The translations under genes and the position numbers were made by a program. The notes beneath the pieces are model-generated. The model was not told where the DNA came from. It searched no databases and saw nothing but the letters and a program-made list of their open reading frames with translations. Positions 266 to 36,417 of a stretch of DNA of 64,000 nucleotides are shown piece after piece. The stretch covers positions 608,001 through 672,000 of the forward strand of contig JAVZJD010000001.1 in assembly GCA_038870975.1 (NCBI GenBank), written 5' to 3'. How positions within the stretch are numbered: the first letter of the stretch is position 1; every line of letters starts with the position of its first letter. The DNA is from Candidatus Bathyarchaeia archaeon (GTDB lineage: Archaea; Thermoproteota; CALKCG01; B24).

Positions 266-1577
266 TTGGTCAGACTTTACGCCGATCTACATGTACATAG
301 TAGGTATTCAGCTGCAACAAGTAGAGATATGACGATTGAGGAAATCGATTTCTACGCTACTATGAAAGGACTTAACATAGTTGGCACTGGAGACGCTTTA
401 CATGGGTCTTGGCTTAAAGAACTTAAAAGTAAACTCACCGAAGTGGATGATTCTGGAATTTATAAAAGTAAGAGCGGAGGTTCAACACTTTTCATAGTTC
501 AAACAGAAGTTGCTACTATTCATGAGTATGAGGGGAAAACTAGGAGGATACACCACGTCATAACTATGTCAAACCTAGACAAGGCAGAAGAACTTAGAGA
601 AAAACTTAGAAGATATGGCGAATTGGATACAGATGGACGACCGATACTCTCAATTAGACCAGCTGAACTTGTGGAAATCCTCTTAGAGACAGATAGAAAC
701 ATTGTTATTTTCCCGGCTCATGCTTGGACGCCATGGTGGGGTATATTCGGCTCCATAAGTGGAGTCAATAAAATGGAGGAATGCTATGAAGATATGGCTA
801 AACATATAAATGCCCTTGAAACGGGTCTTAGCTCTGACCCATCTATGAACTGGAGGATTTCAGCTTTAGATAGATACACTCTTCTAAGCTTCTCAGATTC
901 TCACAGTCCCTATCCATATAGATTGGGCAGGGAGGCTACTGTCTTCAATTTAAAGGAGAAGACATACAGAGAAATTGCCGAAGCGATTAAAAATAAAGAC
1001 CCTACGAAAATAGTGATGACAGTCGAAGTTAACCCGGCCTACGGGAAAGGCTTTAAACCCCCCGATGTACCATTGGTCGGGCCATAGAAAGTGTGGCATA
1101 GGACCACTATCGCCTGAAGAGGCCTCTAAACTTAAATATAAATGCCCTATCTGCGGTAGAACGCTTACGAAGGGTGTTGAAAGCAGAATTGAAGAGTTGG
1201 CCGACCGGCCTAGGGGATTTAAGCCTTATAACGCCATACCGTATGTTTCAACATTGCCGCTCCATGAGCTCATAGCATTGTCTCATGGTTTAGACCCATC
1301 TTATGAGGGAGCGTTATCCACTAAGAAGGTTTGGGAAACCTATCGAAACTTAACATCGAAACTTGGAAGTGAATATTTCATCCTTCTGGAGGCTTCACGT
1401 GAAGATATTTTGAAAATCACAGATAACATGAAGCTGGTTGAACTTATAACTGCTCAGAGAACAGGCTCCTTAAGGATAAAACCTGGTTTTGATGGGGTTT
1501 ACGGTAGACTCGTATTTGAAGCAGGCGAAGATGTGAAGATGATTAAAGCTTCAAAGAAGCTGGAGGACTTTTTATGA
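266..1577 (+). CDS. endoQ: Endonuclease Q (PHP-domain DNA repair endonuclease), split by a 19-nt BHB intron; join(266..1047,1067..1577), 430 aa
   Basis: ORF 266-1087 has the PHP motifs DLHVHS, GTGD, HH, PAHAWTP, ETGLSSD, SDSHS and LGRE. ORF 1065-1577 has YHWSGHRKC, CPICG and PGFDGVYG. Removing 1048-1066 gives the continuous EVNPAYGKYHWSGHRKC. Confidence 0.88.
1048..1066 (+). other. Putative BHB-type mRNA intron (19 nt, AGGCTTTAAACCCCCCGAT) in endoQ
   Basis: 4-bp helix CGGG(1042-45)/CCCG(1061-64); 3-nt bulges AAA(1046-48) and ATG(1065-67); inner GG/CC stem; outer TA/TA plus a 7-bp helix CCCGGCC(1033-39)/GGTCGGG(1075-81). Canonical cuts restore the frame. Confidence 0.85.
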
Positions 1578-1706
1578 AATACTTTACGAAAGAAGCTGGA
1601 GGCCTTGGCGTTCATAGTGGATCACACCGATCGAACGGATTTTTAAGTGTAATCTTGTAAGAATACTTATTATACCGTCTCCAATTCTTCTCCTCTTAAG
1701 AGCAGG

Positions 1707-3437
1707 TTGACTTTAGAATTCGAAATTAAAGATCGGGATGCTGGAGCTAGACTTGGCAAAATTAGAGTTAAGGGGAAAACTGTTGAAACTCCTCTCTTTC
1801 TGCCGGTCTATAATCCGAATATACCTATTATACCTCCTGTTGAAATGAAAGAGAAGTATGGTTTTAAAGCGATAATGACTAATGCATATATAATATATAA
1901 AAACGAGGCTTTAAGAGAGAAAGCTCTTAAGAATGGTATACATTCTTTTTTAAACTTCGATGGAATAGTATTTACGGATTCAGGTGCATATCAAAGCTTT
2001 AAGAGTAGATTAGCATTAAAACAAGAAGAAATAATTAGTTTTCAAGAGAAAATAAACGTTGACGTAGGAGTCATGTTGGATGTACCATCTCGCGGCGAAA
2101 GCTTCGAGGAATGTAGGGAAAGCGTTATAGAAACCGCTAAACGGGGGGAGGAGTGGTCTACTTTAAGGTCTAAAGGTAGGATTGCTTGGGAGGGTGTTAT
2201 ACAGGGCGGAGCCTATCCTGAGCTTTTAGAATTATCGTGTAGACTTATGTCCAACTTCGACTTTGACGTATTCGCTGTGGGAGTCCCGCCGAAATATTGG
2301 ATGAGTTATAACTTCGAGTTCATAGCTATCCAGGGATTGAATAGCAGGATTAATATTTCCCCGGAAAAACCCTTACATGCGTTTGGAATGGGTAATCCGA
2401 TAGTACTGTCTCTTCTAACAGCGATAGGTTATGACATATTTGACTCTGCCAGTTATGCTATTTACGCTAAAGACGGAAGATATATGACTGAGTGGGGTGT
2501 TAAGCGAATCGAAGAATTAGACTACCTACCGTGCAACTGCCCTCAATGTTCAAATAGAGACCTAGGTGAAATTAGAAGAATGGCTAAAGATGAGCGTATA
2601 AACTTCTTAGCGAGGCATAACCTTTATGCAATATGTAGGGAAATAAACGCTATAAAACAAGCCATAAGAGAGAATAGACTATGGGAGCTTGTCCAGCAAA
2701 GGGCGAGAGCTCATCCAAAAGTACTTGAAGCCCTCATAAGAGCCTTCAAAGATGGTTGGAGCTACTTTAAAATGGTAGACCCAATAAGGAAGAGGTCTGC
2801 CCTCTTCTACTCGGGTGAAGAGACGAGTTTAAGACCTGAACTTAGAAGAGCATTGGAGAGAGTTAAGAAGAGGCTTGGTTCTGATAAAGTCCCATCAGCT
2901 TTATCCGAGGTCTATCCTTTCGGACAATGCATTCTTAAAAATGAGATTCTAAACTTTGATGGGAAGGAATACAGCGACTTGGAGAAAATTAGGATAATAG
3001 CAGACTACCAGTTTGGTTCAGAAGTTGGATCGAGGCTAATACCTGATGATGCATTTATAGAGAAAAGCAGGCGTACTGGCAGAATTAGACGCATATGGAT
3101 TGGGGATAAACTTATAGGAGCAATAAGGCCTAGTGATGGCTTCATAAGTTTGGGCTTAGAAGGCGCTCTTAGACTTAGGAAGATCTTACAGCCTCCAAAG
3201 TATAGGGTTTATGTAGATGAAGATTTAAAGCTTATCCAAACGGTTAAATCAGGCGGAGATGTTTTCTCGAAATTTGTTACTAAATGCGACCCAGAGATAG
3301 TTCCAAAGGAGGAAGTTATGGTGGTTGACCAAAGCGATTCGCTGTTGGCTGTCGGCCAAGCAGTTTTAGCGGGCTTTGAAATGGGTAAGTTTAGAAGAGG
3401 CATTGCCGTTAAAGTTAGGAGGGGGATTGAAGGGTGA
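1707..3437 (+). CDS. tgtA: Archaeosine tRNA-guanine(15) transglycosylase
   Basis: ETPLFLPV, TDSGAYQ, DIFDSASY, CNCPQC...HN zinc site and a C-terminal PUA domain. Confidence 0.92.
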   Translation: MTLEFEIKDRDAGARLGKIRVKGKTVETPLFLPVYNPNIPIIPPVEMKEKYGFKAIMTNAYIIYKNEALREKALKNGIHSFLNFDGIVFTDSGAYQSFKSRLALKQEEIISFQEKINVDVGVMLDVPSRGESFEECRESVIETAKRGEEWSTLRSKGRIAWEGVIQGGAYPELLELSCRLMSNFDFDVFAVGVPPKYWMSYNFEFIAIQGLNSRINISPEKPLHAFGMGNPIVLSLLTAIGYDIFDSASYAIYAKDGRYMTEWGVKRIEELDYLPCNCPQCSNRDLGEIRRMAKDERINFLARHNLYAICREINAIKQAIRENRLWELVQQRARAHPKVLEALIRAFKDGWSYFKMVDPIRKRSALFYSGEETSLRPELRRALERVKKRLGSDKVPSALSEVYPFGQCILKNEILNFDGKEYSDLEKIRIIADYQFGSEVGSRLIPDDAFIEKSRRTGRIRRIWIGDKLIGAIRPSDGFISLGLEGALRLRKILQPPKYRVYVDEDLKLIQTVKSGGDVFSKFVTKCDPEIVPKEEVMVVDQSDSLLAVGQAVLAGFEMGKFRRGIAVKVRRGIEG

Positions 3438-4135
3438 AGACGAAGAGCTTCATCAAATTTTTTGATACTCCTGAGCTTGAAAATCCCATCCTTATAGAGG
3501 GGCTTCCAGGAATAGGTTTAGTTGCTAGCTTAGCCGCACACTATATTATAGAAAAGTTTAAAGCCAGTAAATTCTGCGACATTAAGTCGCCCTTCTTTAA
3601 GCCCATAGCTATTGTTGGCAGAAACGGTTATCTGAGACACCCAATAAGTAGCTTATTTTATGTTAAGATGCCGTCTGATGCCAGAGGAGACCTTATAATA
3701 CTATATGGAAATAGTCAGGCGTCTACATTTACAGGTCAAAATGATTTAGCCGAGACAATTATAGATTTAGCTTCCAAGTTTAGATGTAGTACCGTTGTGA
3801 CTCTTGGTGGATTTTCAACATTAACACCGTCAAGTCCACCCAAAGTTTACTATGCTACAAATTGCTTAGAGTATTCTTCAATATTTAGAGACATGGGTCT
3901 ACCGAAGTTATCTGGACGGGTATATGGAATAGCCGGAGTTTTAGCTGGTTTAGCTAAGCTTAGAGGAATGCGAAGTATCTGCCTACTTGGAGAAGTTAAG
4001 AGTGGAGAATTAGGTCGAGAAGCAGCAGAAGAAATTCTAAAAGTATTGAGTGTTTTTCTAAACTTCCATATTGAGCTAGCTAATTTAGAAAAATGTCTAG
4101 ACCACGTAAAGGAGGATGCTCTCGGTTTAGTATAG
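3434..4135 (+). CDS. Proteasome assembly chaperone (PAC2) family protein
   Basis: ILIEGLPGIGLVASLAA N-terminus; VVTLGG; GIAGVLAGLAKLRGM..CLLGE. Confidence 0.85.
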   Translation: MKTKSFIKFFDTPELENPILIEGLPGIGLVASLAAHYIIEKFKASKFCDIKSPFFKPIAIVGRNGYLRHPISSLFYVKMPSDARGDLIILYGNSQASTFTGQNDLAETIIDLASKFRCSTVVTLGGFSTLTPSSPPKVYYATNCLEYSSIFRDMGLPKLSGRVYGIAGVLAGLAKLRGMRSICLLGEVKSGELGREAAEEILKVLSVFLNFHIELANLEKCLDHVKEDALGLV

Positions 4136-4139
4136 TTTG

Positions 4140-4574
4140 CTATTCCGCTACTTCTCTAATGAACTCTTCATAAATCTTCTGAACTCTCTCAGCAGCTGGA
4201 CCTGAACCTTCAATTACTCCTTTCTCCGTGACCCTTATCTTATCCATAACTACTATTACACCCTGATCCTCATACAATTTGACGAGCCTTGGGAAAACTC
4301 TCTCAAGTCTTTCAGCCAGATTTCTGAGGCTTAAAGGTTTTTCAGACGTGTATACCTGTGCTATAATTCCACCACTTATTATAAGCCTATACATAACTGT
4401 TCCTTTTTCATCTCTAGCATCTCGAAGCGATAGATTCAATCTATCTGGATCGAAACCCGTTAAAATTCCCGTGTATTTTTTCCCATCTATTGTAATAACG
4501 GTGACGTTTTTATTTAATAAAGAAGCCATCTCTTCTGCAAACTTGCTTCTAGATACTAAGCTCACTTCCGACAC
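4140..4574 (-). CDS. Lsm/Sm-like RNA-binding protein with C-terminal extension (SmAP3-like)
   Basis: Sm1 motif LNKNVTVITIDGKKYTGILTGFD..NLSL plus a C-terminal domain ending GPAAERVQKIY. Confidence 0.85.
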   Translation of the reverse strand: MSEVSLVSRSKFAEEMASLLNKNVTVITIDGKKYTGILTGFDPDRLNLSLRDARDEKGTVMYRLIISGGIIAQVYTSEKPLSLRNLAERLERVFPRLVKLYEDQGVIVVMDKIRVTEKGVIEGSGPAAERVQKIYEEFIREVAE

Positions 4575-4727
4575 CCTTGAAATACTTATTAGAACATCTC
4601 AGTAAATTAAGAGTTATCCTACGACTCCATATAGAAGTCTCTCAGCTTTAAAACCAGCTTGTCTTTAAACAAAGAAGAGTTCGAATAAAATTTAAGGGCT
4701 TGAACAAGCACATATTACCAGATACAT

Positions 4728-5003
4728 TTGGGTAGGAGAAGAAGAAGGAAAGTTTTACGGACGTTTAGAAGAATTATACCAAAGGTTTTCACATGTCCAA
4801 TATGTGGGAGAAGGACAATAACCGTGCGGATAATTAGAGAGACAAATATTGCACATGTAGCATGCGGATCGTGTAAAATATCGGGCGATGTTGCACTCTC
4901 CGAGGGTATGACTGCTGTCGACGCGTATTGTACATGGTATGATGAAGTCGTGTCTGGGAAAGGGTCTGAAGAGGTTAAACAGGTAAGCTCTGAGGGGGTT
5001 TAA
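4728..5003 (+). CDS. elf1: Transcription elongation factor Elf1
   Basis: MGRRRRR...PKVFTCPICG...CGSC...VDAYCTWYD zinc ribbon. Confidence 0.9.
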   Translation: MGRRRRRKVLRTFRRIIPKVFTCPICGRRTITVRIIRETNIAHVACGSCKISGDVALSEGMTAVDAYCTWYDEVVSGKGSEEVKQVSSEGV

Positions 5004-5045
5004 ATTCATACAATAGTGTATGGATGATGTAACCGGAGGCATACT

Positions 5046-5831
5046 ATGACCGTCAAATTGGGGAAAGTCGAAAAGTATTTGATTAAGAGGATTGATGAAG
5101 AGGGGGCTCTACATGTACCATTAATAGACCCTGAAAACGTTTCGCCAGAGAGAGCTGCTGAAATAAGCGTTATCGCTGAAAAAATGGGATCAGCAGCTAT
5201 AATGGTGGGTGGATCAACCGTTGCTTCCACCAGTAAATTAAACGATGTTATAAAACTTATTAGAGAAAAAATTTCAATACCAACGATACTATTTCCAAAC
5301 AATCTTTCAGGCATAAGTCCATATGCAGACGCCATATGGTTTATGTCGCTTCTAAACTCGTTAAATCCATACTACATAATAGGTGCACAGGTTTTAGGCG
5401 CCTCCGCCGTTAAAGAGTATGGATTAGAGCCGCTTCCTCTCGCATACTTAATCATAGGAGACGGGGGTGCGGCTGGATACATCGGCCAAGCCCACCCAAT
5501 ACCTTACGATAAACCCGAGATAGCGGCGTTATACGCATTAGCCGCCCAGTATCTCGGTATGAGATTCGTATATCTTGAAGCAGGATCTGGAGCGAAAAAT
5601 CCAGTTCCAGTTGAAATGGTTGCTTTAGTTAGAAAAACCATAAGCATCCCCATTATAGTTGGTGGTGGTTTAAGGCATCCAGATGCTGTAGAAGAGAGGG
5701 TTTACGCTGGTGCTGATATAATCGTAACTGGGACGGTGGTGGAGACGTCCATGGACGTCGAGAGCTCACTACGACTCTTCGTAGATTCTGTGAAGAGAGG
5801 TTTCAAGAGAAGATGCGAGAGGCAGATGTAA
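5046..5831 (+). CDS. Geranylgeranylglyceryl phosphate synthase
   Basis: LIDP, VGGS, FMSLLNS, YLEAGSGA and GGGLR motifs. Confidence 0.92.
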   Translation: MTVKLGKVEKYLIKRIDEEGALHVPLIDPENVSPERAAEISVIAEKMGSAAIMVGGSTVASTSKLNDVIKLIREKISIPTILFPNNLSGISPYADAIWFMSLLNSLNPYYIIGAQVLGASAVKEYGLEPLPLAYLIIGDGGAAGYIGQAHPIPYDKPEIAALYALAAQYLGMRFVYLEAGSGAKNPVPVEMVALVRKTISIPIIVGGGLRHPDAVEERVYAGADIIVTGTVVETSMDVESSLRLFVDSVKRGFKRRCERQM

Positions 5832-5832
5832 A

Positions 5833-8800
5833 TTGGAGCCTCAACCCGGTTTAAATTCATCAGACGAATATGAAGAATACTTTAAGACTATAGAGTTTCA
5901 ACTTAGAGCCCTTTACAATATTGCGCATGAAGCTAGGTCTAAAGGATTGGATCCAAATCCACAACCTGAGCCGAAACTCTCAAAGGATTTAGCTGAACGT
6001 GTAGAGTTTTTAGTTGGTCCCAAGGGAATTGCAGAGCGTATAAGGGAACTCAGTTCTACGATGAGTAGAGAGGCTTTAGCATTAAAGGTTTCAGAGGATA
6101 TAATCTATAAGGGCTACGGTAGATTAAGCCCAGAGAAAATTGCTGATCAGAGTTTAAGAACTGCTTTAGCCATAATAACTGAAGGTGTCACAGTAGCACC
6201 TGTTCAAGGAATATCAAAAGTTTCAATAAAAACGAATACGGACGGTTCTAAATACTTGGCTGTATATTTTGCAGGTCCTATAAGGCCTGCCGGGGGGACG
6301 GAACAAGCCTTCACAGTTGTAATAGCGGATTTTATTAGGAAAAAACTCGGGCTAGATAGGTGGAAGCCGTCTGAAGAAGAAGTCTTTAGACTCATAGAGG
6401 AGATTAGAACATATGAGAGGTTTATACGCCCCTTCCAGTATCAAGTTCCAGACAGCGTTTTAGAGAAGATAATTCGAAACCTACCCGTTGAAGTAACTGG
6501 TGTTGAGACAGACCCCGTTGAAGTAACATCTTACAGAGACTTACCTAGGGTCGAGACCAACAGAGTAAGAGGGGGAGCTTTGATAGTGCTTAATGACGGA
6601 TTGGCAGGTAGAGCTAGGAAACTTTTGAAGATTATAGAATCTCTTGGAATAGAAGACTGGAAGTGGATAGGGAATGTATGGAACTCCAATCAGAATGGAG
6701 GAAGCGTGGAAACCATAGAAACGATGTACCTTGAGGAGATACTTGCTGGTAGACCCGTCTTTGGATTTCCATCGAAATTCGGAGGATTTAGAGTAAGGTA
6801 TGGGCGTGCTAGGAATACTGGGTTTGCAGCACTAGGAATACATCCAGCAACCATGGTGATAGTTGATAGTTTCTTAGCAGTAGGTACTCAGATAAAAACT
6901 GAAAAACCAGGTAAAGCAGGCATAGTTGCATCAGTGGATTCTATAGAACCACCTATCGTTAAGCTCAAAGACGGTTCCGTTGTAAGAGTTGAGACAATTG
7001 AAGAAGCATTAAACGTCAAAGATAAGATTGATAAAATACTTTTTCTAGGGGATATTCTCATAAGCTTCTACGAGTTTCTTGAAAATAAGGCTAATCTACT
7101 TCCACCTGGTTTTACGGAAGAATTATGGAGTCAAATGCTCTTAAATAGTTTAAGAGAAAAATATGGATTAGACTACGAAAAGTTCAGTATAGCCTCTAAA
7201 ATATCTGTTAATAGGCTTAAAGCGTTTATAGAAGACCCGTTTTATACGAAGCCTTCACCTACCGAAGCTTTAACTATATCCCGTCTACTAGGAATACCCA
7301 TCCATCCGCGTTTTATTTACGCATGGGAAAATCTAACGTTTAAAGAGCTTAAACAACTGCGGAGGACCCTCTCAGAGGCTGAAATTGAATATGTTAATGG
7401 TATTATCAAACGATTGAGATTAAAGAACGATCAGATTATTAAAGACATTCTTGAGAGACTTCTTCTCCCCCACCGAGTGGCAGGAGGGTGGATAATCATA
7501 GAGGACGATGGCTACGTATTATATGAATGCCTAAAGCCCAATACGATGATAGATATAGACAGCTTGAATATAGACAACATTTTCAATGTAATATCTACGA
7601 TTTCAGGAGTTGAAGTTAAACCCAAATTCATAAGTTTCATAGGCGCCCGAATGGGTAGACCGGAGAAGGCCAATCGAAGACTCATGAAAACTTCAGTTCA
7701 CAGTTTATTTCCCATAGGTCTTGCGGGGGGATTTAGAAGAAACATAGTAGAAGCCGCCGAGAAAGACTTTGTAGAGGTTGAATTAGTCCACCGTAAATGC
7801 TCGACGTGCGGTTTTGAAACGTACAGACCAATTTGCCCTAGGTGTGGAGGTAAAACGACCGTTCAATATGGATGCCCAGCCTGTGGAAGACCATTGAGTG
7901 TAGACGCCGTATGTCCATCTTGTAAAACCCCTTCGTCTGCTTACAGGAAAATGCGTATAGCTCTAAAGAATGAATTGTATAATTCGCTAAGAAGCCTAGA
8001 TTCTCCAAAGCTGGAGACGATTAAAGGCGTTATTAAACTTATGAATGCTACTAGAACACCAGAACCCCTCGAAAAGGGAATATTGAGGGCCAAATATGAC
8101 CTGACGGTGTTTAAAGACGGTACCATTAGATTCGATATGACAAATGCTCCATTAACTCATTTCAAACCATCGGAGATAAATACGCCTATTCCCAAGCTTA
8201 AGGAGCTTGGATATTATAGGGATTTCAATGATAAACCACTTGAAAGCCCCGATCAAATATGTGAGCTTAAAATCCACGATATAATACTTCCAAAGAGCTG
8301 CGGTAAATATCTTGTGAAGGTGGCAAATTTCATAGATGAGTTGCTCGAAAAATTCTATAGGTTACCAACGTTCTATAACGTTAAAAACGAAAACGATCTC
8401 ATAGGGCACTTGGTTATTGGACTTGCTCCCCATACGTCAGTTGGCGTAGTCGGTAGAATCATAGGTTTTACCGATGCAAATGTATGCTTTGCCCATCCAT
8501 ATTGGCATGCTTGTAAGAGGAGAGATTGCGATGGAGATGAGGATTCCATTATGCTTGCTTTAGACAGCTTGATAAATTTCTCAGTTGAATATCTGCCAGC
8601 TCAAGTAGGGGGTTTAATGGATGCACCACTTATGATAACTTATAGGATTAATCCCTTAGAAGTTGACTCTGCGGTTCATAGTTTGGATGTTTCAGACAAG
8701 TACCCTATGGATTTTTACAGCATGTGTTTTAAAGAAGTCGACGCTAGGGAAGCTAAGGATTTAATAGAAATTGTTGAGAAAAGACTTAGCTCTAATATAC

Positions 8801-9306: not shown

Positions 9307-9349
9307 ATAGTGAATTTTTCTTAAACCATGAGGAGCTAAAGACGGGTGG

Positions 9350-11008: not shown

Positions 11009-11013
11009 AAACA

Positions 11014-21994: not shown

Positions 21995-22103
21995 TGGCGG
22001 GCCCGGCGGGAGTTGAACCCGCGACCACCGGGTTACTTCAGTAATTTGGGGCATTCTTCTTACTTTAAAAGCCCGGCACTCTACCATTCTGAGCTACGGG
22101 CCC
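21995..22103 (-). tRNA. tRNA-Lys(UUU) with a 32-nt intron at 37/38 (22034-22065); CCA encoded
   Basis: Cloverleaf GGGCCCG...CCGGG-CTTTTA^A-CCCGG...TTCAACT...CGGGCCC-G-CCA; BHB with CTTT/GAAG helix and AGTAA/TTACT inner stem. Confidence 0.95.
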
Positions 22104-25888: not shown

Positions 25889-25920
25889 GTTTCCAACTTT
25901 TGCTTCCAAAAGTTGGAAAC
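25889..25920. repeat. Perfect 14-bp inverted repeat between convergent genes (terminator or REP-like element)
   Basis: GTTTCCAACTTTTG-CTTC-CAAAAGTTGGAAAC. Confidence 0.6.
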
Positions 25921-25988
25921 GGGATCTTTCCTCAAATAAGCATCTCAACAAATTCACAGTCATGTTGAAAACATGCTTGACTTGGAGA

Positions 25989-26438: not shown

Positions 26439-26488
26439 AATTGTCTCGATAAATATTTTTCAAAGTCCTCACATATATGTCTTAGCAG

Positions 26489-27169: not shown

Positions 27170-27184
27170 TAGGGGTGTCTACAC

Positions 27185-27709
27185 TTAGACATACGCCATT
27201 TTTCGTTCTGGATAAGTTTTACTGAAGAACTCTTCAACTTTCTTAGTCAATTCTTCATCTATGGGTTTTTCGGATTCGAATAATGGAGTCCTACGCTTTA
27301 CGGCATATTTACCCAATCCAAACATGAGTATGGTTTTTAAGTCGTCTTGCGGGAATAATGCTTGAAAACCAAAGGGTTGACCTTCATTAAAGACCTTCAT
27401 AAATATTTCAGAGTTTAAGTCGCGTATCTCCGCTCCTACAGTTATGTAACTGTAGGGGTTTATTGGTTTAGATTTAAGCTTCCAGAGTAATTCGTTTCTA
27501 TGGGATATGTAGAAGTCTAGTCTTCCTCCACTGTCAAGACCTGCGAGAACACTCCAACCACGGCTATCTTTATCGTAAATATCCTTTATGCGTTTAACTA
27601 TCTGACTCCCGAGCTCTATCAACATCTCTATACTTGAAGACCGCAGTTGAGGTAAATAAACCTTAATAACGGTCTTCTTTTTAATCTTATAATGGCACTT
27701 TCCATCCAC
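27185..27709 (-). CDS. Hypothetical protein (true start probably later, near MLIELGSQ)
   Basis: Open frame filling the gap between genes; no motif recognised. Confidence 0.55.
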   Translation of the reverse strand: MDGKCHYKIKKKTVIKVYLPQLRSSSIEMLIELGSQIVKRIKDIYDKDSRGWSVLAGLDSGGRLDFYISHRNELLWKLKSKPINPYSYITVGAEIRDLNSEIFMKVFNEGQPFGFQALFPQDDLKTILMFGLGKYAVKRRTPLFESEKPIDEELTKKVEEFFSKTYPERKMAYV

Positions 27710-27754
27710 TTTTAGATACGACTATTTCTTAAGAGTGAGAGATTATGGGAGGGG

Positions 27755-28159
27755 TTGGCTTTAGAGCTAGAAGTATGGTTTATGGGTTATAGTGGTAGGA
27801 AAACTAGGGATTTTTTAGACTCCCTTAAGAATAATCATATAGAGCTCCTTGTCGATATTAGAAGATTCCCTACTTCTAAAGTGGAAGACTTTAGAAGGGA
27901 TGTATTGGCTGAACTTCTTAGACGCGAGAACATAGCATATTTATGGTTAGGCGACTTGCTTGGGGGTTATAGACATGGAGGATTTGAAAAATACATGGAG
28001 ACAGATGACTTTAAAAAAGGACTGGATATATTAATTGGGGAAATCTCTAGAAGAAGGATTTGCATAATGTGTCTTGAACGCAATCAGAAATACTGTCACA
28101 GACGTTTCATAGCCGAAGCCTTAAAGAAGAGGGGTTTTAAAGTGATAGGAATACCGTAA
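27755..28159 (+). CDS. DUF488 family protein
   Basis: GYS, LVDIRRFP.SK, LGGYR and MCLE....CHR. Confidence 0.88.
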   Translation: MALELEVWFMGYSGRKTRDFLDSLKNNHIELLVDIRRFPTSKVEDFRRDVLAELLRRENIAYLWLGDLLGGYRHGGFEKYMETDDFKKGLDILIGEISRRRICIMCLERNQKYCHRRFIAEALKKRGFKVIGIP

Positions 28160-28292
28160 TCGAAACTCTTAATTAGCAGAAAAAAGAATAAACTTGAATG
28201 GCGAATGAAGATAGGATGATTTACAGAGCGTAGAGCTATGAAGCCAGACGGGCGGACTGACGCCTTCCACATGTCGTTGCAAATAATCGTCA

Positions 28293-29120
28293 CTAAAGCT
28301 CTTCTATCAGTTGCTCATAAAATGATAGATGCTTATTCGAATCTGCGTTGACAAACAATCTTCCAGAGCCTTTTTCATTAAGGTCCCCTATGAACGTGTA
28401 AAAGCGCCCTTTCAATCTTTCAGTCTCTACCCTAATACTCGGTCTAATTTCTTCAAAGCTAAAACTTGCGAGGATTGATGGAATATAGCCGAGCACGATT
28501 ATTCTACCATTTTTCATAAAAGCTCCAGCACCCATACCGCACCCACCTTTTATAAGTATAGTGCCGCCAATCATATGGATCCCTGGAAAACCGCCAACAT
28601 CACCATCAACCATGATCAGTCCGTTCTTCATTTTATAGCCTATATTCCAACCAGTTTTACCGTGAACCACTATAGTTCCTCCCCTCATGCCGAAGTTTTC
28701 ACCTCTATAAGCCCCTCCTAGAAAGTCTCCCACATCACCGTAGACCTCTATAGAGCCGCCTTTCATTTTAGCCCCTAACCATGGTCCAGCGGAGCCTTCT
28801 ATTATAATCTTACCACCTCTCATGGCTTCACCAAATCCTATGCCTGCTATTCCTTTAATTCGTATTATACCGCGGCTCATCTCTCTACCGATTCTCCTAA
28901 CTTTTGAGAAGTCTCCGATAAATTCAAGCGTAGTTTCTTCAGCCTCTCCAACTTCCTTTATCTTAAACAGCTCTTCCAAACGCTTCCTTTTATTTCCCTC
29001 GTAGACTTCAACGTTTAAGACCTCCGACAATTGCTTCTCTTCAAATAATTCAGGTTTTAAATTATCCGCTAATATTGGAAGCTTAAAATCGTAAGCTGGG
29101 GTTAACTGATAGATTTTCAA
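28293..29120 (-). CDS. fwdC: Formylmethanofuran dehydrogenase subunit C
   Basis: Repeated GxxMxGG beta-helix (GXGXG) motifs; operon context. Confidence 0.93.
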   Translation of the reverse strand: MKIYQLTPAYDFKLPILADNLKPELFEEKQLSEVLNVEVYEGNKRKRLEELFKIKEVGEAEETTLEFIGDFSKVRRIGREMSRGIIRIKGIAGIGFGEAMRGGKIIIEGSAGPWLGAKMKGGSIEVYGDVGDFLGGAYRGENFGMRGGTIVVHGKTGWNIGYKMKNGLIMVDGDVGGFPGIHMIGGTILIKGGCGMGAGAFMKNGRIIVLGYIPSILASFSFEEIRPSIRVETERLKGRFYTFIGDLNEKGSGRLFVNADSNKHLSFYEQLIEEL

Positions 29121-29121
29121 A

Positions 29122-30825
29122 TTAAATACCTCCCTTAATGCTTAATGGATGAGAATTAACGAGGAGACTTTCATCGGTAATATAGTTTTCAAATTCAACG
29201 GTATAATAATCTCTAAATCTTCTACGGATATCTGAAACAACTGAATCTTCAAGGTCTTTTGAAATTGATGGGTTAACCCAGAAAATCGCTCCATCAACAC
29301 TTTTAACTACTTCACCGTTTACACAAACTATATTCCCAGCTTTTATCGTATATGCAGCTTTTCTAAACGCCTTTCTAATCAACTTGTAGTCTCTAGATAG
29401 GTCAATATTACGCGGATTAAAGTTGTATATCGCTATATCTGCATCAGCTCCAACTCCGAGGTGCCCCTTTGAGCTTAAACCTAAAATCTTAGCAGTGCCA
29501 GCTCTAGTAATTATGGCTATCTCATAGAGGCTGTATTCTCTGTCAATACTGTTGAGTAATGTTCTCCTCAAGGCCCTAGGATTCACTTTTTTCATGGTGG
29601 CTTCTCTAGCCTTACGGCTTATAAGCCAGGCCATAACCCTTGGGTATTCAGTGAATGGCCCAGCATTCGGATGGTCTGTTGTGAGGAAAACCCTCCATGG
29701 GTCTTTAATTAATAGAGCAAGCTCAAGCCCTGTGATCCATTGAATTGCATGTACGTAGTTTCGCTTCTTATATCTAAATGGTACGACTCCAGCTGAAGTT
29801 TCACATTCTACATCTGCATTAACCCATTTATAGTCCGTTAAAAGGTGAAGTTGAAATTGAAATGGGCCATCTGCAGTCATTGTCGTAGCATTGGAGAATA
29901 TGACCTGGCCTATATCTATAACTACGTGAGAATGCTTGTTTACGTAGTCGGCTACTTCCGGCGCTCCTGAATATAATTCAATCCAACTTTCACCAGCATA
30001 AGAGTTAAACTGGCAGTGAGTCAAGTATATAATCGGTTTGGATCCATCATATAAGTCTCTAACACAATCCATAGTCTCTATGAGAGTTTTATAATTTCCA
30101 GGCTGTCCAAGCCTATTGGCGTGTACATGTATAGGATGGGGGGCGTTTATCATCAGATTAACCTTACACAATCCCCTTAAGATCTCCCTCGGCGTCAAAT
30201 TAAACCCAAGTACGTTATCATCTAGGTTTCTGACGTTTCTTCCCCATCCCCACGACTCTAAACCACCGGGGTTCACAATTTTTAAAGCATATCCTTTTAA
30301 AGACTTTAAAAGCCAAGCTGTATAAGCCGCACATTCTTTAATCATGCCTTTTTCAAGATACTCCATTATAAACCAGCAATCTCCTACAAGGGGGAAAGAA
30401 GCTTTATCTACTATGGGAATATCATTAAGCTCCTCAATTGTATGCTTCTGTTTAAGCATTGGAGTTGCGGGTTCTACAACCATGGTGTAACCCATTCTGG
30501 CGTAACGGTAGCCAGTTACGAAAGTCGAGGGGACTGTATATCCTACACCCGACCTCAAACCGGGTTTACGTAGCTCATAGTCTCTATAATGGTCTTCAGG
30601 CCTTAGAGCTCTACCCGAGTTGACCTTTGAACCTGCTACATGACTGTGTATATCTACTCCTCCAGGCATTACAACCATACCAGTCGCATTTATGACCTTA
30701 ACATCGGTCCCTTTAACGTCTTCTACTATTTTGCCATTTTCCACGGCAATATCGATAATTTCACCATCAATGCCATTTATCGGATCAAAAACAAGACCAT
30801 TTTTTATCAGCAGTTTTCCAGACAT
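29122..30825 (-). CDS. fwdA: Formylmethanofuran dehydrogenase subunit A
   Basis: PGGVDIHSH, KIVNPGG, HVHAN, HCQF and TTDHPNAGPF. Confidence 0.95.
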   Translation of the reverse strand: MSGKLLIKNGLVFDPINGIDGEIIDIAVENGKIVEDVKGTDVKVINATGMVVMPGGVDIHSHVAGSKVNSGRALRPEDHYRDYELRKPGLRSGVGYTVPSTFVTGYRYARMGYTMVVEPATPMLKQKHTIEELNDIPIVDKASFPLVGDCWFIMEYLEKGMIKECAAYTAWLLKSLKGYALKIVNPGGLESWGWGRNVRNLDDNVLGFNLTPREILRGLCKVNLMINAPHPIHVHANRLGQPGNYKTLIETMDCVRDLYDGSKPIIYLTHCQFNSYAGESWIELYSGAPEVADYVNKHSHVVIDIGQVIFSNATTMTADGPFQFQLHLLTDYKWVNADVECETSAGVVPFRYKKRNYVHAIQWITGLELALLIKDPWRVFLTTDHPNAGPFTEYPRVMAWLISRKAREATMKKVNPRALRRTLLNSIDREYSLYEIAIITRAGTAKILGLSSKGHLGVGADADIAIYNFNPRNIDLSRDYKLIRKAFRKAAYTIKAGNIVCVNGEVVKSVDGAIFWVNPSISKDLEDSVVSDIRRRFRDYYTVEFENYITDESLLVNSHPLSIKGGI

Positions 30826-32109
30826 CTATCTCAACCTCCTAAGTATATGGGTTAAAATCTCAACGTCTGATAAAATTCCAGGAGGAGGTTCGATAATCTT
30901 CTTGAGTTGTATAGGAACACCATCCATTCTATAAGCCGTTCCAGCAGTTTCAATTCCAACATAAGCAACTGGTATCGCAACGTCAGCCATTTTAACTGTC
31001 GGTGTTATACTCGGATCTAAAATGATGAGCTTTACGTTTTTAAGCTTTTCAACGATGGAATATGGCAGATGGCTACATGGATCAGCGCCTACGACAAAAA
31101 GTAGATCGCATTCACCTCTGGCTAATACATCCACAGCTGATGTTTCTCCGGGGTTATACCTTGGATAACCCATTGAGAAGTCTACGCAGAAAGGATACCC
31201 AGTTTGCCAAGTGAAGACTTCATTGGCTCCAGTTACATTGAAGTGACCTCTCATAGGAATCATTACAAACTTTGTTTTCTTATTCAGGTCTCTAGTAAGA
31301 GCTATAGCAGCCTCGATGTTATGTTCTTTTCCATAGCTCATCGTAAGACCTAAGCCGAAGAATAATGCTCCAAATCTTGCGTTAACCATTATATCGGCTA
31401 ATTCCTCAAGCTTTGCCACTGCAACACCGCCAACTTCTTCAACTTCTAAATCTAAATCGTTTATCAATGCTCTTAAAGCTGTTAAAATTTCAAAGTCAGT
31501 ATTTGGTCTAACTTGGATAAACATATCCGCCATTGCGGCCGTGGGCGTTTTCCTAACATCTACAACCACCATACGTCTGTCTTTTCTACCAGTTACAAAT
31601 CTACCAGTAGATAGAGGACCGTAGCGCATCATATGCCTAGGATGAGCTTCCAAAGGATTGCAACCCCAGTACAGTATTAGGTCCGCTCTATGTCTAACTT
31701 GTCCCAGCGTCGCTGAAGGGATTCCCATATCTTGAAGGCCTAGAATCGTTGGGCCATGACATACGACAGATATGTTGTCTGCAAGACCACCGGATAAATC
31801 GGCCATTTCTAAGCATAGCTTTATTGCTTCACAACTGGTACATCCAAACCCATAGAAGACAGGGTAGTTGGAACTTTTAACCATTTCCACGGTTTTTTCG
31901 ATTGCCTTTTCTAGACCTGTCTCTACAGACTCTCCGTTAACTTTAACCCGTGGTTTTAGAAGTCTATTTTCACTTACACTTAAGAATTTACCACGACCAA
32001 GTGCGCATGCATTCCTAACGTTTATTATTTTATTAGATTCGACCTCGACCTCTAAATCGTCGCAACAGCATCCGCAAAAAGGACATAACACGTTTTTAAA
32101 GACCTCCAA
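30826..32109 (-). CDS. fwdB: Formylmethanofuran dehydrogenase subunit B (Cys form)
   Basis: CPFCGCCCDD, VCHGP, AHPRH, MRGHFNVTG and AYRMDGVP. Confidence 0.95.
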   Translation of the reverse strand: MEVFKNVLCPFCGCCCDDLEVEVESNKIINVRNACALGRGKFLSVSENRLLKPRVKVNGESVETGLEKAIEKTVEMVKSSNYPVFYGFGCTSCEAIKLCLEMADLSGGLADNISVVCHGPTILGLQDMGIPSATLGQVRHRADLILYWGCNPLEAHPRHMMRYGPLSTGRFVTGRKDRRMVVVDVRKTPTAAMADMFIQVRPNTDFEILTALRALINDLDLEVEEVGGVAVAKLEELADIMVNARFGALFFGLGLTMSYGKEHNIEAAIALTRDLNKKTKFVMIPMRGHFNVTGANEVFTWQTGYPFCVDFSMGYPRYNPGETSAVDVLARGECDLLFVVGADPCSHLPYSIVEKLKNVKLIILDPSITPTVKMADVAIPVAYVGIETAGTAYRMDGVPIQLKKIIEPPPGILSDVEILTHILRRLR

Positions 32110-32112
32110 CTT

Positions 32113-32481
32113 TCAGCCCTCCTTTTGACCACTTGCTTTAACAGGTTCAACTTCAACTTCTAACCCTTTGAAGCTAGGCATTCCAGTTCCATGTGTATTA
32201 GGGCTTGTTAAACTATTAACGCAAGGACCGTATGCCATGAAAATTATCCCTGGATGAGGAGCATACCTAGATTTCACCGCTTGAACTATAATGCTTCCAT
32301 GTTGGGAACTTATCCTAACGTTATCTCCTTCAACTATGTTAAGTCTACTCATATCCTCAGGGTCCATTTGACATACCGCTGTAGCATTCACATAGCGTTT
32401 TGAAAATTTACCCGTCTCCTTTCCCAATCCCTGTTCAAGACTTCTACCGGATACAAGTACCATTTTAACCAGACTAACCAC
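32113..32481 (-). CDS. fwdD: Formylmethanofuran dehydrogenase subunit D
   Basis: SGRSLEQG, GP..N and TGMPSFKG. Confidence 0.9.
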   Translation of the reverse strand: MVSLVKMVLVSGRSLEQGLGKETGKFSKRYVNATAVCQMDPEDMSRLNIVEGDNVRISSQHGSIIVQAVKSRYAPHPGIIFMAYGPCVNSLTSPNTHGTGMPSFKGLEVEVEPVKASGQKEG

Positions 32482-32601
32482 CGCCTAAGATGATTTAAAC
32501 AATCACTCTGAAAGAAATTTCATATACATAACCAGTTTAAAATTGTTTTCTATATAGTAAGACTTATTCTTTACACGTACTACTATAGTGTAGGTGACCA
32601 C

Positions 32602-33879
32602 TTGGAAAAAACATCCCGTATAGCTGGATTTTACAAATTAAGCTTGGAAGATAGGCTACGGATAGTAGCTGAATTTGCAGATTTAACAGAGGAAGAATGT
32701 AACTTACTTAGAGATACTGGCAGTCTAGAACTCGGTTTAGCTGATAGGATGATTGAAAATGTCATAGGTGTGATGCATATACCGTTAGGCGTTGCTTTAA
32801 ATTTTCTTATAAACGGAAGAGACTACTTAGTGCCTATGGCTATAGAAGAGCCGAGTGTTGTAGCAGCAGCAAGTAATGCCGCTAAAATAGCCAGAGCCAA
32901 GGGAGGCTTTCAAGCTTCTACTACACCACCTATAATGATTGGTCAAATACAACTCGTTAAAGTTCCAGACCCATATGGAGCCAAGTACACTATTCTAGTC
33001 CATAAGGAAGAAATTCTAAGTAAAGCTAACGAACAAGACCCAGTGCTAGTTAAATTGGGTGGTGGCGCTAAAGATTTAGAAGTTAGAGTCGTCGAATCTG
33101 ACTTGGGACCTATGGTCATTACACATCTTCTTGTAGACGTTAGAGATGCTATGGGTGCCAACGCTGTCAATACAATGGCTGAAGCTGTCGCACCATTAAT
33201 AGAGAAGCTTACTGGAGGAAAAGTTTATCTGCGTATTATTTCAAACCTGGCCGTTTATCGGCTTGCAAGAGCCAAAGCGGTATTCGATAAAGGAGAATTA
33301 GGTGGTGAAGAGGTCGTCGAAGGAATCTTATATGCGTATCACTTTGCTAAATCCGACCCGTTTAGATGCGCAACACACAACAAGGGAATTATGAATGGTA
33401 TAATCGCAGTGGCACTTGCTACGGGTAATGACACTAGGGCCTTAGAAGCTGGCGCCCATGCATATGCTGCCAGAACAGGCAAATACCAGCCGCTTACAAC
33501 TTGGGAAGTAAACAATGATGGTGATTTAGTAGGTACGATAGAGTTGCCCCTAGCCGTTGGAATAATAGGCGGGGCTACTAGATCTAACCCTCTAGCGAGG
33601 GTTTGTTTGAAGATTTTAGGCGTAAAATCTGCTTGTGAATTAGCCGAAGTTATGGCCTCTGTAGGATTAGCGCAAAATCTCGCGGCGTTAAAAGCATTGG
33701 CTACGGAAGGTATTCAAAGGGGACATATGAAGCTTCATGCTAGAAATATAGCTATAATGGCTGGCGCCACAGGTGAGTTGATAGATGAAGTGGCAGACAG
33801 GATGGTGAAAGAGAGGATTATAAGAGTCGATAAAGCTAAAGAAATTCTACAGGAACTTCTTGAAAAGAGGGGTAAGTAG
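32602..33879 (+). CDS. mvaA: Class II HMG-CoA reductase
   Basis: [24 protein letters not shown] and [10 protein letters not shown]. Confidence 0.93.
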
Positions 33880-34193
33880 GATTTTATGATAATGTTTTTA
33901 GTTTTTCACAGCTTTTATACACTAGCGTATTTTTATTTTATGTTCTCTGCGAAGAGGGTTTAGAAAAGAATTTAAATGTAGATCTCGTGGAAAACCTTCC
34001 GTGAGCTGTGTTTCTGTAAACGCACAGTATAGGAACGTAGACATACGGTGATTCCTGCACTAATAGTAACATTTAGAAGCTGTAGAAGAGAAAGAGAGTT
34101 GGTACGTAAAGCTAGAACTCTGTCCAACTCTCATAAAATGTAAAGGTTAATAAGATTGAAAGCAGGATAGTTTCCTGCTTAGGGGGGATGGAA

Positions 34194-36417
34194 ATGCCTA
34201 GGTATAAGACGACGGCTGAAATCCTTAGGATAATTAAGGATAAGGAGCTTATTCGAAAGGCTTAAGGCTAGAACCTTAAGCCCGAAAAATATAGGTATTA
34301 TAGCTCACGTAGATCACGGTAAAACCACCATGTCTGATAGTCTTCTCGCTGCCTGCGGACTGCTTTCACCATCAGTAGCTGGTCAGGCCTTAGCATTAGA
34401 CTACATGGAGGAGGAACAGCAGAGACAAATGACTATTAAAGCCGCTAACGTGAGCCTCTACTATGAATATGAAAATAAACCGTACGTCATAAATTTAATA
34501 GATACCCCTGGACACATAGACTTTACAGGGAAAGTTACAAGGTCTCTACGGGCAATAGATGGGGCTGTTGTTGTCGTAGATGCTGTTGAAGGTGTGATGA
34601 CACAAACAGAAACTGTAACGAGACAGGCTTTAGAAGAGCGTGTTAAACCAGTACTATACATCAATAAGATCGATAGGTTGATCAACGAACTCAAGCTCTC
34701 ACCGCAGAAAATACAAGAAACAATTGTTAAGATAGTCAAGGATTTTAACAGTTTAATCGAAATGTATGCCGAACCAGAGTATAGAAACACTTGGAAAGTT
34801 AGCTTCACAAACAACAGCGTAGCATTAGGCTCTGCAAAGTACAAGTGGGGGTTTACACTTAAAACTGCCCAGAGGAAAGGCGTAAAATTCTCCGATGTTG
34901 TAGCGGCTTATCAAGAGGGCAACATAGATCATTTGGTGAAAGCAGTTCCACTCCATGAAGCAATATTAGAAATGGTTATCGAGCATCTCCCCCCACCCCA
35001 TGTTGCTCAAAAGTATAGAATACCTAAGATTTGGAGAGGCGATCTATCTTCTGATGTCGGTAAGGCTATGCTAGAATGTGATGACAATGGCCCCGTAGTC
35101 ATGTGCGTCTCCAATATAACTGTCGACCCGCAAGCAGGTATAGTTGCTACTGGTAGATTATTTTCAGGGACCATAAATTCAGGTGATAACATTTATCTGA
35201 TAGGCGCTAAATCCTACAGTAGGGTTCAACAGGTCTGTATATACATGGGACCCAATAGAGAAATCGTCGGCAGTCTATCGGCTGGAAACATACCAGCTCT
35301 ACTAGGACTTGATAAGGCTAGGGCAGGTGAAACAATCTCATCTGTGCAGGATATTGTGCCATTTGAAGCCGTCAAATATGTGACCGAGCCTGTTGTAACT
35401 ATAGCGATAGAGCCTAAATATAGTAGAGATTTACCTAAACTAGTTGATATATTGAATAGACTTACAATAGAAGATCCAAACTACGTAATCAAGATCGACC
35501 AAGAAAGTGGAGAATACCTACTCTCAGGAATTGGACAAGTACATCTGGAAATAGCTTTAACTCTAATAGGTAAAACCGGTTTAGAAATCGTAACATCTCC
35601 ACCAACAGTTATATATAGAGAGAGCATCAGGAGCGCGGCGGGACCATTTATGGCTAAATCTCCAAACAAACATAATAGAGCATTCATAAGCGTTGAACCA
35701 CTAGACCCTGAGATAGTAGAGCTTATAACCTCAGGTCAACTTAATGATTCCTTAGATCGAAGGACAATAGCTAACATTCTTAGAGAGCATGGATGGCCTG
35801 CTGAAGAAGCTAGAAACGTTTGGAGCATAGACCAACATGGATGTATTTTAGTGGATAGGACTAAAGGTATCCAGTACCTTAACGAAGTTAAGGATTATAT
35901 AGTTTCAGGGTTCCTCTCAGCTATGGACGATGGGCCGCTTACGAGAGAGTATGTTAGAGGTGTAAAGGTTAACCTTGAAAACGCTGAATTACACTCCGAC
36001 CCTGCACACAGAGGCCCAGCTCAAATAATACCAATGGTTCGTAGGGCGATCTATGCATGCCTTCTATCGGCAGATCCAATCCTACTTGAACCTATAATGA
36101 AGCTTGTGAGTAGGGCTCCGACTGAAATGGTTGGCGCTCTTACAAAAATCATTACATCTAGAAGGGGACGCATTTTAACAATAGATCAAAAAGAATACGT
36201 TATTCAAGTTGAAGGAGAAATACCTGCTGCTGAAACATTCGACTTAGCGAATGTTATAAGATCGGCAACATCTGGTAGGGCTTTTTGGAGCCTACCATTT
36301 TCAAGATGGGCTCCAGTGCCATCATCTATGCTGTCTCAACTCGTAAGTGAAATACGAAAGCGTAAGGGATTACCTCCAGAACCCCCGAAGGCTGAAAACT
36401 TCATGGATAAAGACTAA
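34194..36417 (+). CDS. fusA: Translation elongation factor EF-2, split by a 31-nt BHB intron; join(34194..34257,34289..36417), 730 aa (alternative start 34188)
   Basis: Exon 1 reads MPRYKTTAEILRIIKDKELIR after a GGGGGG SD. Exon 2 continues NIGIIAHVDHGKTT, DTPGH, NKID and the HRG diphthamide loop. The unspliced frame stops at TAA 34263. Confidence 0.93.
34258..34288 (+). other. Putative BHB-type mRNA intron (31 nt, AGGCTTAAGGCTAGAACCTTAAGCCCGAAAA) in EF-2
   Basis: Helix TTCG(34252-55)/CGAA(34283-86); bulges AAA(34256-58) and AAA(34287-89); perfect 9-bp inner stem GGCTTAAGG/CCTTAAGCC; outer TA/TA. Canonical cuts give ATT CGA AAT ATA GGT = IRNIG. Confidence 0.92.

Follow-up and report, generated by a model that had tools for sequence, protein, structure and literature searches.

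Probable tRNA-type micro-introns in the aEF-2 and EndoQ coding sequences of a hot-spring Bathyarchaeia archaeon

Introduction

In the HAC1/XBP1 system, Ire1 cuts stem-loops in the mRNA and a tRNA ligase or RtcB joins the exons, which constitutes a proven stress-regulated switch. Multi-intron tRNAs and transposed intron families have reportedly been described in the Thermoproteales (Sugahara 2008; Fujishima 2010), where the intron families are defined by clear sequence similarity at different sites. The pre-mRNA introns of cbf5 in Crenarchaeota are 16-44 bp long and have a BHB or relaxed BHB motif (Watanabe 2002; Yokobori 2009, PMC2738675), and splicing has been confirmed for no gene except cbf5 (PMC2738675). 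The HVO_1309 mRNA of Haloferax volcanii, which serves the tRNA splicing endonuclease as a substrate both in vivo and in vitro, carries a BHB intron in its 5' UTR (Schwarz 2020, PMC7714728); in 2020 cbf5 was still listed as the only other mRNA case (PMC7714728), and in the searchable literature cbf5 alone is published as having BHB introns in its coding region.

The window analyzed here is a 64,000-nt stretch of DNA from Candidatus Bathyarchaeia archaeon (assembly GCA_038870975.1, contig JAVZJD010000001.1, positions 608,001-672,000 of the forward strand). The genes for aEF-2 and for the repair nuclease EndoQ of this hot-spring archaeon are each split by a tiny tRNA-type (BHB) insert in the coding sequence. 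We consider it very probable that both inserts are genuine pre-mRNA BHB introns and that the design they have in common reflects the general consensus of the organism's endonuclease and does not define a family of related introns.

Results

Both genes are present in one copy in the genome, and all of their parts lie on the forward strand of the window. EndoQ exon 1 (266-1047), taken from the ORF list, covers positions 2-234 of the NCBIfam profile TIGR00375, the family to which EndoQ belongs, and ends in ...AYG followed by the AA of a Lys codon. The 19-nt insert (1048-1066) was placed by direct reading and occurs at the same site in relatives; exon 2 (1067-1577) supplies the G of the Lys codon, continues with YHWSGHRKC... 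and covers profile positions 238-373, so that the two profile segments become contiguous once the insert is removed. The aEF-2 exon 1 (34194-34257, also from the ORF list) contains MPRYKTTAEILRIIKDKELIR and ends in the first base of an Asn codon. It is followed by the 31-nt insert (34258-34288), delimited by a spliced RNA contig, covariation and the fold, and by exon 2 (34289-36417), which starts with the remaining two bases of the Asn codon and runs through IGIIAHVDHGKTT... to the stop. Exon 2 matches the NCBIfam aEF-2 profile TIGR00490 with 872 bits over positions 22-720 and contains the Pfam GTP_EFTU and EFG domains, and in intron-less relatives the aEF-2 N-terminus runs straight into the same residues. 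In both genes the precise removal of the insert restores a conserved full-length reading frame. Both lengths are of the form 3n+1, as the original prediction had pointed out, but this property of the two introns in the window is not conserved among their orthologues.

The BHB geometry, with 3-nt bulges on opposite strands, a 4-bp helix between them and a cut after the second base of each bulge, is present at both sites by direct reading, in the MFE folds and with RNAalifold. The EndoQ site reads UA(1040-41)-CGGG(1042-45)-AA^A(1046-48)-GG..CC-CCCG(1061-64)-AU^G(1065-67)-UA(1068-69), where the central helix is 1042-1045/1061-1064, the 5' and 3' bulges are 1046-1048 and 1065-1067, the inner helix is 1049-1050/1059-1060 and the exon helix is 1040-1041/1068-1069. 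The EF-2 site reads UA(34250-51)-UUCG(34252-55)-AA^A(34256-58)-9-bp stem-CGAA(34283-86)-AA^A(34287-89)-UA(34290-91), with the central helix at 34252-34255/34283-34286, the bulges at 34256-34258 and 34287-34289, the 9-bp stem at 34259-34267/34274-34282, its loop at 34268-34273 and an in-frame TAA at 34263-34265. The exon-side helix is just 1-2 bp at these sites, which is the relaxed form of the BHB. The MFE folds hold the central helix, the 5' bulge, the inner stem and both of the distal exon helices (CCCGGCC/GGUCGGG in EndoQ, GAGCU/AGCUC in EF-2) that had been predicted as part of the design, but conservation of the distal helices stops at the closest family: that of EF-2 keeps two to three of its five pairs elsewhere, and that of EndoQ, judged by eye, is broken in one of four lineages. 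Against shuffled sequences the fold of the EF-2 intron gives z = -4.8, and that of the EndoQ site is no better than the shuffles (z = -0.17).

The removal of the EF-2 intron from RNA was observed. A 782-nt RNA contig from the metatranscriptome run X14 aligns to 34183-34255 and 34287-34995 and skips 31 nt. Because three bases fit on either side of the joint, the 34255/34287 joint corresponds to the removal of 34258-34288, and the 31-nt insert is exactly missing in this environmental RNA. The observation is that of one assembled contig from one run, which has no DNA from the same sample, and the RNA run X16 yielded no contig across the junction. The DNA runs X1 and X2 span the intron and contain no such joint. 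The X14 contig may instead reflect an intron-less EF-2 allele in the DNA of that population, against which stands the presence of the intron in every relative of the order. EndoQ, we infer, is spliced as well.

A different reading is that the inserts are never spliced, the two genes being pseudogenes, holding insertions or assembly errors, or being translated by ribosomal bypassing or frameshifting. It would account for the broken reading frames, and the CGAAA found at both ends of the EF-2 insert could be seen as a take-off/landing pair or a target-site duplication. We give it almost no credence. For EF-2 it is contradicted by the RNA contig that lacks the 31 nt, whereas in programmed bypassing or frameshifting the mRNA keeps the insert; the insert is present in independent DNA runs from several studies, EF-2 is both single-copy and essential, and compensatory changes extend over family-to-order distances in a covariation that fits a BHB and does not fit a take-off/landing pair. 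The CGAAA pair itself comes from the palindromic helix UUCGAA and is gone in relatives that have UCCG/CGGA.

The genome encodes RtcB and archease as well as two paralogs of EndA, of 186 and 185 aa. Both paralogs have an N- and a C-terminal domain, and one of them closely resembles crenarchaeal catalytic subunits (E = 6e-45). This gene complement agrees with the broad-specificity machinery that the original prediction had named as fitting, and the endonuclease is most likely of the broad-specificity type, a heteromer of the two paralogs. Which enzyme cuts, which one ligates and what roles the two EndA subunits have we infer.

The EF-2 site is occupied by an intron in 16 distinct sequences from related Bathyarchaeia, which come from four families of the order and three more lineages. 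These orthologous introns are 26-47 nt long, fall into all three classes modulo 3 and diverge quickly in sequence. Their pairing is kept in 159 of 160 pair cells, versus 22-87 of 160 when the partner is slid, and RNAalifold reports compensatory changes in eight of 12 pairs. Pair 2 of the central helix is U-A in eight of the 16 introns and C-G in the other eight; as first exon pair 13 introns have A-U and three have G-C, and all 16 share the 5' bulge AA^A. The EndoQ intron is found at the same site in eight distinct relatives, with lengths of 19, 20, 21, 30 and 31 nt, and is confined to two families; it is absent in all further families searched, where AYGKYHW is contiguous. Presence in relatives is patchy, as the original prediction had anticipated. 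Its central helix changes from CGGG/CCCG to CGGA/UCCG, a compensatory change of G-C to A-U, and RNAalifold finds four of 14 pairs to be compensatory, one of them in the central helix, in an alignment of only seven to eight sequences. The EF-2 intron is older than the order. The EndoQ intron is later: it dates to the ancestor of two families, and in this genus its length has fallen from about 30 nt to 19 nt. Sequence and length of both introns have since changed by drift while selection maintained the structure; the two are old and unequal in age, and they look vertically inherited. In a different lineage EF-2 carries an independent intron at another site, the result of a separate invasion. With the profiles rejoined, the covariation and the EF-2 RNA contig, the proposal holds that both inserts are BHB introns and that full-length protein depends on their removal.

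The motif by itself is no more than chance at both sites. A relaxed BHB descriptor fits about 350,000 places in the genome, and a genome-wide scan for BHBs that merge ORFs returned 5,786 cases versus 5,200-5,950 in frame-shifted decoys, background thus equalling signal; when tightened, the scan returned 126 versus 104-155. Micro-introns cannot be found by such a scan. Long-stem BHBs alone stand out, four having an inner stem of at least 8 bp versus one per decoy. The 8-mer AAAGGCTT, for which enrichment at the sites had been suggested, shows none in the window (6 occurrences versus 5.2 expected) and a mild excess genome-wide (286 versus about 214 expected), with two of the 286 at introns. What raises both sites above chance is the exact restoration of conserved protein motifs, together with the covariation in relatives and, for EF-2, the spliced RNA contig. 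Two candidates of the scan, L7Ae/S28e and DHQS/DHQase, are adjacent separate genes according to Pfam; the third candidate put to Pfam was a DeoC-family aldolase and is outside the verified set. That set comprises at least eight protein genes with BHB introns, namely EF-2, EndoQ, mat, pcm, Lrp/AsnC, mtnA, cbf5 (with an intron of 17 nt) and a radical-SAM gene. The expectation of many such introns genome-wide was right in kind, but the density is about one per 230 kb (eight genes in a 1.85-Mb genome), not the one per 32 kb suggested by the window.

The introns were also compared with each other and with those of the stable RNAs. There are many tRNA introns in this genome, and the five canonical ones found all begin with A. 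The 16S rRNA intron, CGGG-AA^A-GG...CC-CCCG-AA^A, has the same flavour as the two mRNA introns, the AA^A bulge with a G-C closing pair recurs in four of the six other mRNA introns (radical-SAM, Lrp, mat and mtnA), and the spliced junction is AA^R in six of the eight mRNA introns and likewise in that of the 16S rRNA. BLAST of intron against intron gave best matches of 6-9 nt with E >= 0.02 in a nine-sequence database and hence no significant similarity, at non-homologous sites included, and a BLAST search of the genome with each intron revealed no additional copy. For the EF-2 intron it did give a 15-nt match, which falls within the coding region of archease and is coincidental. In two relatives the EndoQ intron (AGGUUUAAGGC..GCCUAAGCC) looks like the EF-2 intron of this genus. 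Short words are held in common by EF-2 and EndoQ (AGGCUU) and by EF-2 and mtnA (GGCUUAAG), and stems of the latter type are seen not only in these two introns but also in the EndoQ intron of two relatives and in the independent EF-2 intron of the other lineage, a resemblance for which a generic consensus does not account.

The original prediction took the design of the two introns as the sign of one family. Such a mobile family of mini-introns, spread by a reversed endonuclease/ligase reaction or by RNA-mediated copying at anticodon-loop-like sites (about GAA^R), is in our judgment unlikely. In its favour can be counted the recurrent AA^R junctions, the words common to pairs of introns, the likeness of the relatives' EndoQ introns to this genus's EF-2 intron, the second invasion of EF-2 at another site in a different lineage and the repeated gains implied by the unequal intron ages. 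However, there is no significantly similar pair of introns and no extra genomic copy, and orthologues diverge so fast that the GGCUU identity within one genus is not inherited from copying at family or order depth. The 7-nt loop split between positions 6 and 7, which had been likened to tRNA 37/38, is mere BHB arithmetic, because any canonical BHB gives 4 + 2 + 1, and the intron 3' end is complementary to the exon because that is the central helix by definition. The exon helix beside this loop has only 1-2 bp, so it forms no anticodon-arm-like hairpin, and the exon site is set by conserved codons (Y-G-K-Y, I-R-N-I), which intron-less relatives have too. A bulge and closing pair that recur in the 16S rRNA and in most other mRNA introns argue for a general endonuclease consensus.

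An early in-frame stop at the third intron-spanning codon is found in 15 of the 16 EF-2 introns despite their divergent stems. By analogy with HAC1/XBP1, splicing might be a regulatory gate through which EndA/RtcB activity would set the output of EF-2 and EndoQ. Expression strictly requires splicing, the early stop would cleanly abort the unspliced EF-2 mRNA, and the long conservation of the EF-2 intron suggests that loss is not easy. We nevertheless find a gate unlikely: the host genes have no function in common (translation, repair, SAM synthesis, protein repair, a regulator, methionine salvage and pseudouridylation), close relatives manage without the EndoQ intron, and the retention of introns is explicable by the rarity of precise deletion, while assembled contigs cannot give ratios of spliced to unspliced RNA. 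It also seems improbable that Bathyarchaeia have an active class of BHB mini-introns inserting at GAA^R-type mRNA sites by reversed EndA/RtcB, with conserved early stops that would tie the expression of core genes such as EF-2 to tRNA-splicing capacity and perhaps let it be tuned thereby. Neither for gating nor for spread by reverse splicing did we find evidence in introns that are old and apparently vertical.

Discussion

Our results suggest a simple scheme for the maturation of the two mRNAs. The four bases of exon 1 that come just ahead of the 5' cut would be paired to the four intron bases just ahead of the 3' cut, the two 3-nt bulges flanking this 4-bp helix would each be cut by EndA after the second base, and the exons would be joined by RtcB with archease. 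Splicing would rebuild the Asn codon in EF-2 (...IR-N-IGIIAHVDHGKTT) and the Lys codon in EndoQ (...AYG-K-YHWSGHR). The unspliced EF-2 mRNA would meet a stop at the TAA three codons into the intron, and the unspliced EndoQ mRNA would be frameshifted. N4-AA^AG...C-N4'-AN^R is very probably the general substrate consensus of the endonuclease, common to the 16S intron, to most other mRNA introns and in part to tRNA introns.

For over two decades no archaeal coding sequence other than cbf5 has been known to require tRNA-type splicing. In the present case an essential translation factor appears to depend on it across a whole order of Bathyarchaeia, and at least eight such genes are present in one 1.85-Mb genome, which points to a wider role of EndA/RtcB in mRNA maturation than was assumed. 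Gene callers mis-annotate intron-bearing genes of this kind as split or truncated. With comparative data it becomes possible to test how protein-spliced introns arose in coding genes and how they spread.

As in HAC1/XBP1, a protein endonuclease would remove an mRNA intron that blocks the full protein and a tRNA ligase would join the exons; the endonuclease is EndA in place of Ire1, and stress regulation is a feature of HAC1/XBP1. HVO_1309 likewise has a BHB intron in an mRNA, but there the intron is in the leader, the reading frame is uninterrupted and the host is euryarchaeal. The introns of archaeal tRNAs and rRNAs have the same motif, enzymes and cut rule, and the AA^A/G-C flavour recurs in the organism's own 16S rRNA; those introns, however, reside in stable RNAs, and similarity of the Thermoproteales type was not found here. 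With crenarchaeal cbf5 our introns share their short length, their position in a conserved coding motif, patchy gain and loss and, by prediction, a host with hetero-oligomeric EndA. They differ from it in their hosts, which are aEF-2, EndoQ and at least five more genes in one genome, and in their lineage, the Bathyarchaeia.

Results

The window (C1:608001-672000) belongs to a genome of 1.85 Mb and 41% GC in two contigs; among named genomes, its nearest relatives are "Candidatus Bathyarchaeota/Bathyarchaeia" MAGs from hot springs. The genome carries one copy each of EndoQ and aEF-2, and the inserts read directly from the sequence of both genes are real introns, confirming the observation in the original prediction. 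The EndoQ insert (19 nt, window 1048-1066) lies at the site TA-CGGG-AA^A-GG-CTTTAAAC-CC-CCCG-AT^G-TA (1040-1069), where ^ is the cut in the 3-nt bulge. Since the TIGR00375 profile of this family matches the upstream ORF at positions 2-234 and the downstream ORF at 238-373, the two ORFs are one EndoQ gene cut within AYG-K-YHWSGHR. Immediately 3' of it is an archaeosine tRNA-guanine transglycosylase with TGT, C2 and PUA domains (1707-3437, +). The aEF-2 insert (31 nt, 34258-34288) lies in TA-TTCG-AA^A-GGCTTAAGG-CTAGAA-CCTTAAGCC-CGAA-AA^A-TA (34250-34291). The long ORF, a TIGR00490 match of 872 bits, begins at profile position 22, and its absent 21 residues (MPRYKTTAEILRIIKDKELIR) are encoded upstream in a different frame that stops at TAA 34263.

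Two of the public runs containing this stretch are metatranscriptomes, and the EF-2 mRNA was seen spliced in one assembled contig from one of them (X14), a run without DNA of the same sample. The 782-nt contig, which differs from the window at two bases, aligns to 34183-34255 and 34287-34995 and skips 31 nt. Because three bases at the joint can be assigned to either side, the gap corresponds to the exact removal of 34258-34288, the form predicted by the bulge-helix-bulge (BHB) cut rule. No such joint occurs in the DNA runs X1 and X2, where single contigs cross the intron.

The four families of the order all carry the EF-2 intron at the identical codon, as do three further lineages. In Wolframiiraptor, Calditenuis, Geocrenenecus, Hecatellales and others the intron is missing and IRNIGIIAH runs on unbroken. 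All 16 distinct EF-2 introns (26-47 nt) share a common fold. Pair 2 of the central helix is split evenly between U-A and C-G (eight each), A-U outnumbers G-C by 13 to three at the first exon pair, and the inner stems keep their pairing with nearly all different sequences. Pairing holds in 159/160 anchored pair cells but falls to 22-87 once the 3' partner is shifted 1-3 bases. RNAalifold independently recovered the helix (4 bp), the bulge (3 nt) and the stem (8 bp), 8/12 pairs showing compensatory changes. An in-frame UAA, UAG or UGA stands at intron positions 6-8 in 15/16 distinct introns (window 34263-34265 and orthologous loci L009-L022, L036 and L072) with differing stems, which is suggestive of selection for stops that may cut short the translation of unspliced mRNA. 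In a different lineage (L025-L028 in genomes G053, G046, G032 and G060) EF-2 is interrupted elsewhere by an independent BHB intron of 30 nt, which separates His from Val in AHVDHGKTT (GCCC-AU^A-CCUAAGGA...UCCUUAGG-GGGU-AA^G); EF-2 has therefore been invaded at least twice.

The EndoQ intron was found in families f1 and f2 (19, 20, 21, 30 and 31 nt); f3, f4 and all further families having the gene lack it. One lineage has CGGA/UCCG in place of the central helix CGGG/CCCG, and a second has CGGG/CCUG. Because their distributions differ, across the whole order and beyond as against f1 and f2, the two introns are of unequal age: that of EF-2 is older than the order, and that of EndoQ was gained in the ancestor of f1 and f2 and then shortened in the window's genus. 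In L046 (genome G008) and L047 (G011), the EndoQ introns, of 30 and 31 nt (AGGUUUAAGGC-UUUA-GCCUAAGCC and AGGCCUAGGCC...GCCUAAGCC), come closer to the EF-2 intron found in the window's genus than the EF-2 introns of these two relatives do, perhaps by convergence or by exchange between introns.

Every further intron was located in the genome and, apart from the 16S and tRNA cases, checked by profile. They interrupt mat (33 nt; AdoMet_Synthase profile 3-23 and 25-394), pcm (29 nt; PCMT 2-59 and 61-209), an Lrp/AsnC gene (22 nt; 2-40 and 43-71), mtnA (19 nt; IF-2B 65-114 and 117-204), cbf5 (17 nt; 8-94 and 71-322 in two frames) and a radical-SAM gene (30 nt; exon 1 without a Pfam match). Counting EF-2 and EndoQ, eight protein genes carry such introns, a density of about one per 230 kb, so that the expectation of many introns genome-wide holds qualitatively. 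A genome scan for BHB motifs and ORFs could give no unbiased count, because chance BHBs are too frequent and merges of adjacent genes drown the signal. Three additional candidates from it were tested; two failed. The third is a DeoC/LacD-family aldolase gene (L128; C2:549900-550600, +), which shows both an in-frame stop (ECEK*GMPY) and, close to the C-terminus, a change of frame. The junction of its 29-nt BHB candidate (550417-550445) is unconvincing, and the gene may be a pseudogene or have its introns wrongly placed.

The 16S rRNA, 102 kb upstream of the window, has a 139-nt BHB intron (C1:505691-505829, -; CGGG-AA^A-GG...CC-CCCG-AA^A) whose CGGG/CCCG helix and AA^A bulges are identical to those of the EndoQ intron. 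Several tRNAs contain introns of various lengths, five canonical ones being found. Within the window, tRNAs with anticodons UUU (21998-22103, -) and GCG (48492-48580, -), both mislabelled by ARAGORN, have canonical 37/38 introns of 32 nt (about 22034-22065) and 14 nt (about 48528-48541).

Discussion

The original prediction took the shared design of the EndoQ and EF-2 introns as the mark of one spreading family. Of the eight mRNA introns, however, six have the AA^A 5' bulge, as does the 16S intron; a G-C closing pair follows it directly in the latter and in 5/6 of these mRNA introns (the exception is mtnA, AA^AUGG), and the first base is A in all five canonical tRNA introns found. The pattern is thus the BHB consensus of the organism. 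The anticodon-like 7-nt loop split at 6/7 is BHB arithmetic (four helix, two bulge and one bulge bases), the complementarity of the intron 3' end to its own exon is the central helix itself, the 3n+1 length is not kept among orthologous introns, and AAAGGCTT does not mark intron sites. The distal exon helices are present in MFE folds, but that of EF-2 is lost beyond family f1. Introns of different genes have only 6-9-nt words in common, and GGCUU after the bulge is confined to the window's genus, in both genes, with GACCU, GGGGU, GAUGU, GGCCG and others in orthologues elsewhere. Stems of the CUUAAG/CCUAAGG type recur across several introns, including the independent EF-2 intron; selection for stop-bearing palindromes is one possible cause, the pattern being suggestive only. 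Nothing found here supports a spreading family, spread by reverse splicing or a regulatory gate by splicing.

As for the splicing machinery, EndA is present as two paralogs of 186 and 185 aa that both contain an N-terminal and a catalytic-type C-terminal domain. Catalytic subunits of the Sulfolobus, Aeropyrum and Pyrobaculum enzymes closely match one of them (E = 6e-45 to 1e-35), and the other is more divergent, with a weak match also to the Aeropyrum structural subunit. Judged by sequence, the pair fits the two-subunit, broad-specificity type, with subunit roles assigned by inference. RtcB and its partner archease are both encoded. The archease gene (C1:605121-605537) lies 2.5 kb upstream of the window's first base. 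The RtcB gene (L003/L004; C1:62226-65000, -) is a single 986-aa open frame in which profile positions 1-50 and 49-426 are separated by about 1.4 kb, an intein-sized insert within the very ligase expected to seal the exons.

When Yokobori 2009 (PMC2738675) described the cbf5 introns, splicing of any other gene was unconfirmed; Schwarz 2020 (PMC7714728) added a Haloferax intron, with cbf5 still the sole other mRNA case, and our literature search found no coding-region BHB introns reported later. The Haloferax intron lies in a 5'-UTR, whereas those of EF-2 and EndoQ lie inside the coding region, and against the 16-44 bp that Yokobori 2009 gives for cbf5 introns, the EndoQ intron measures 19 nt, that of EF-2 31 nt and that of this genome's own cbf5 17 nt.
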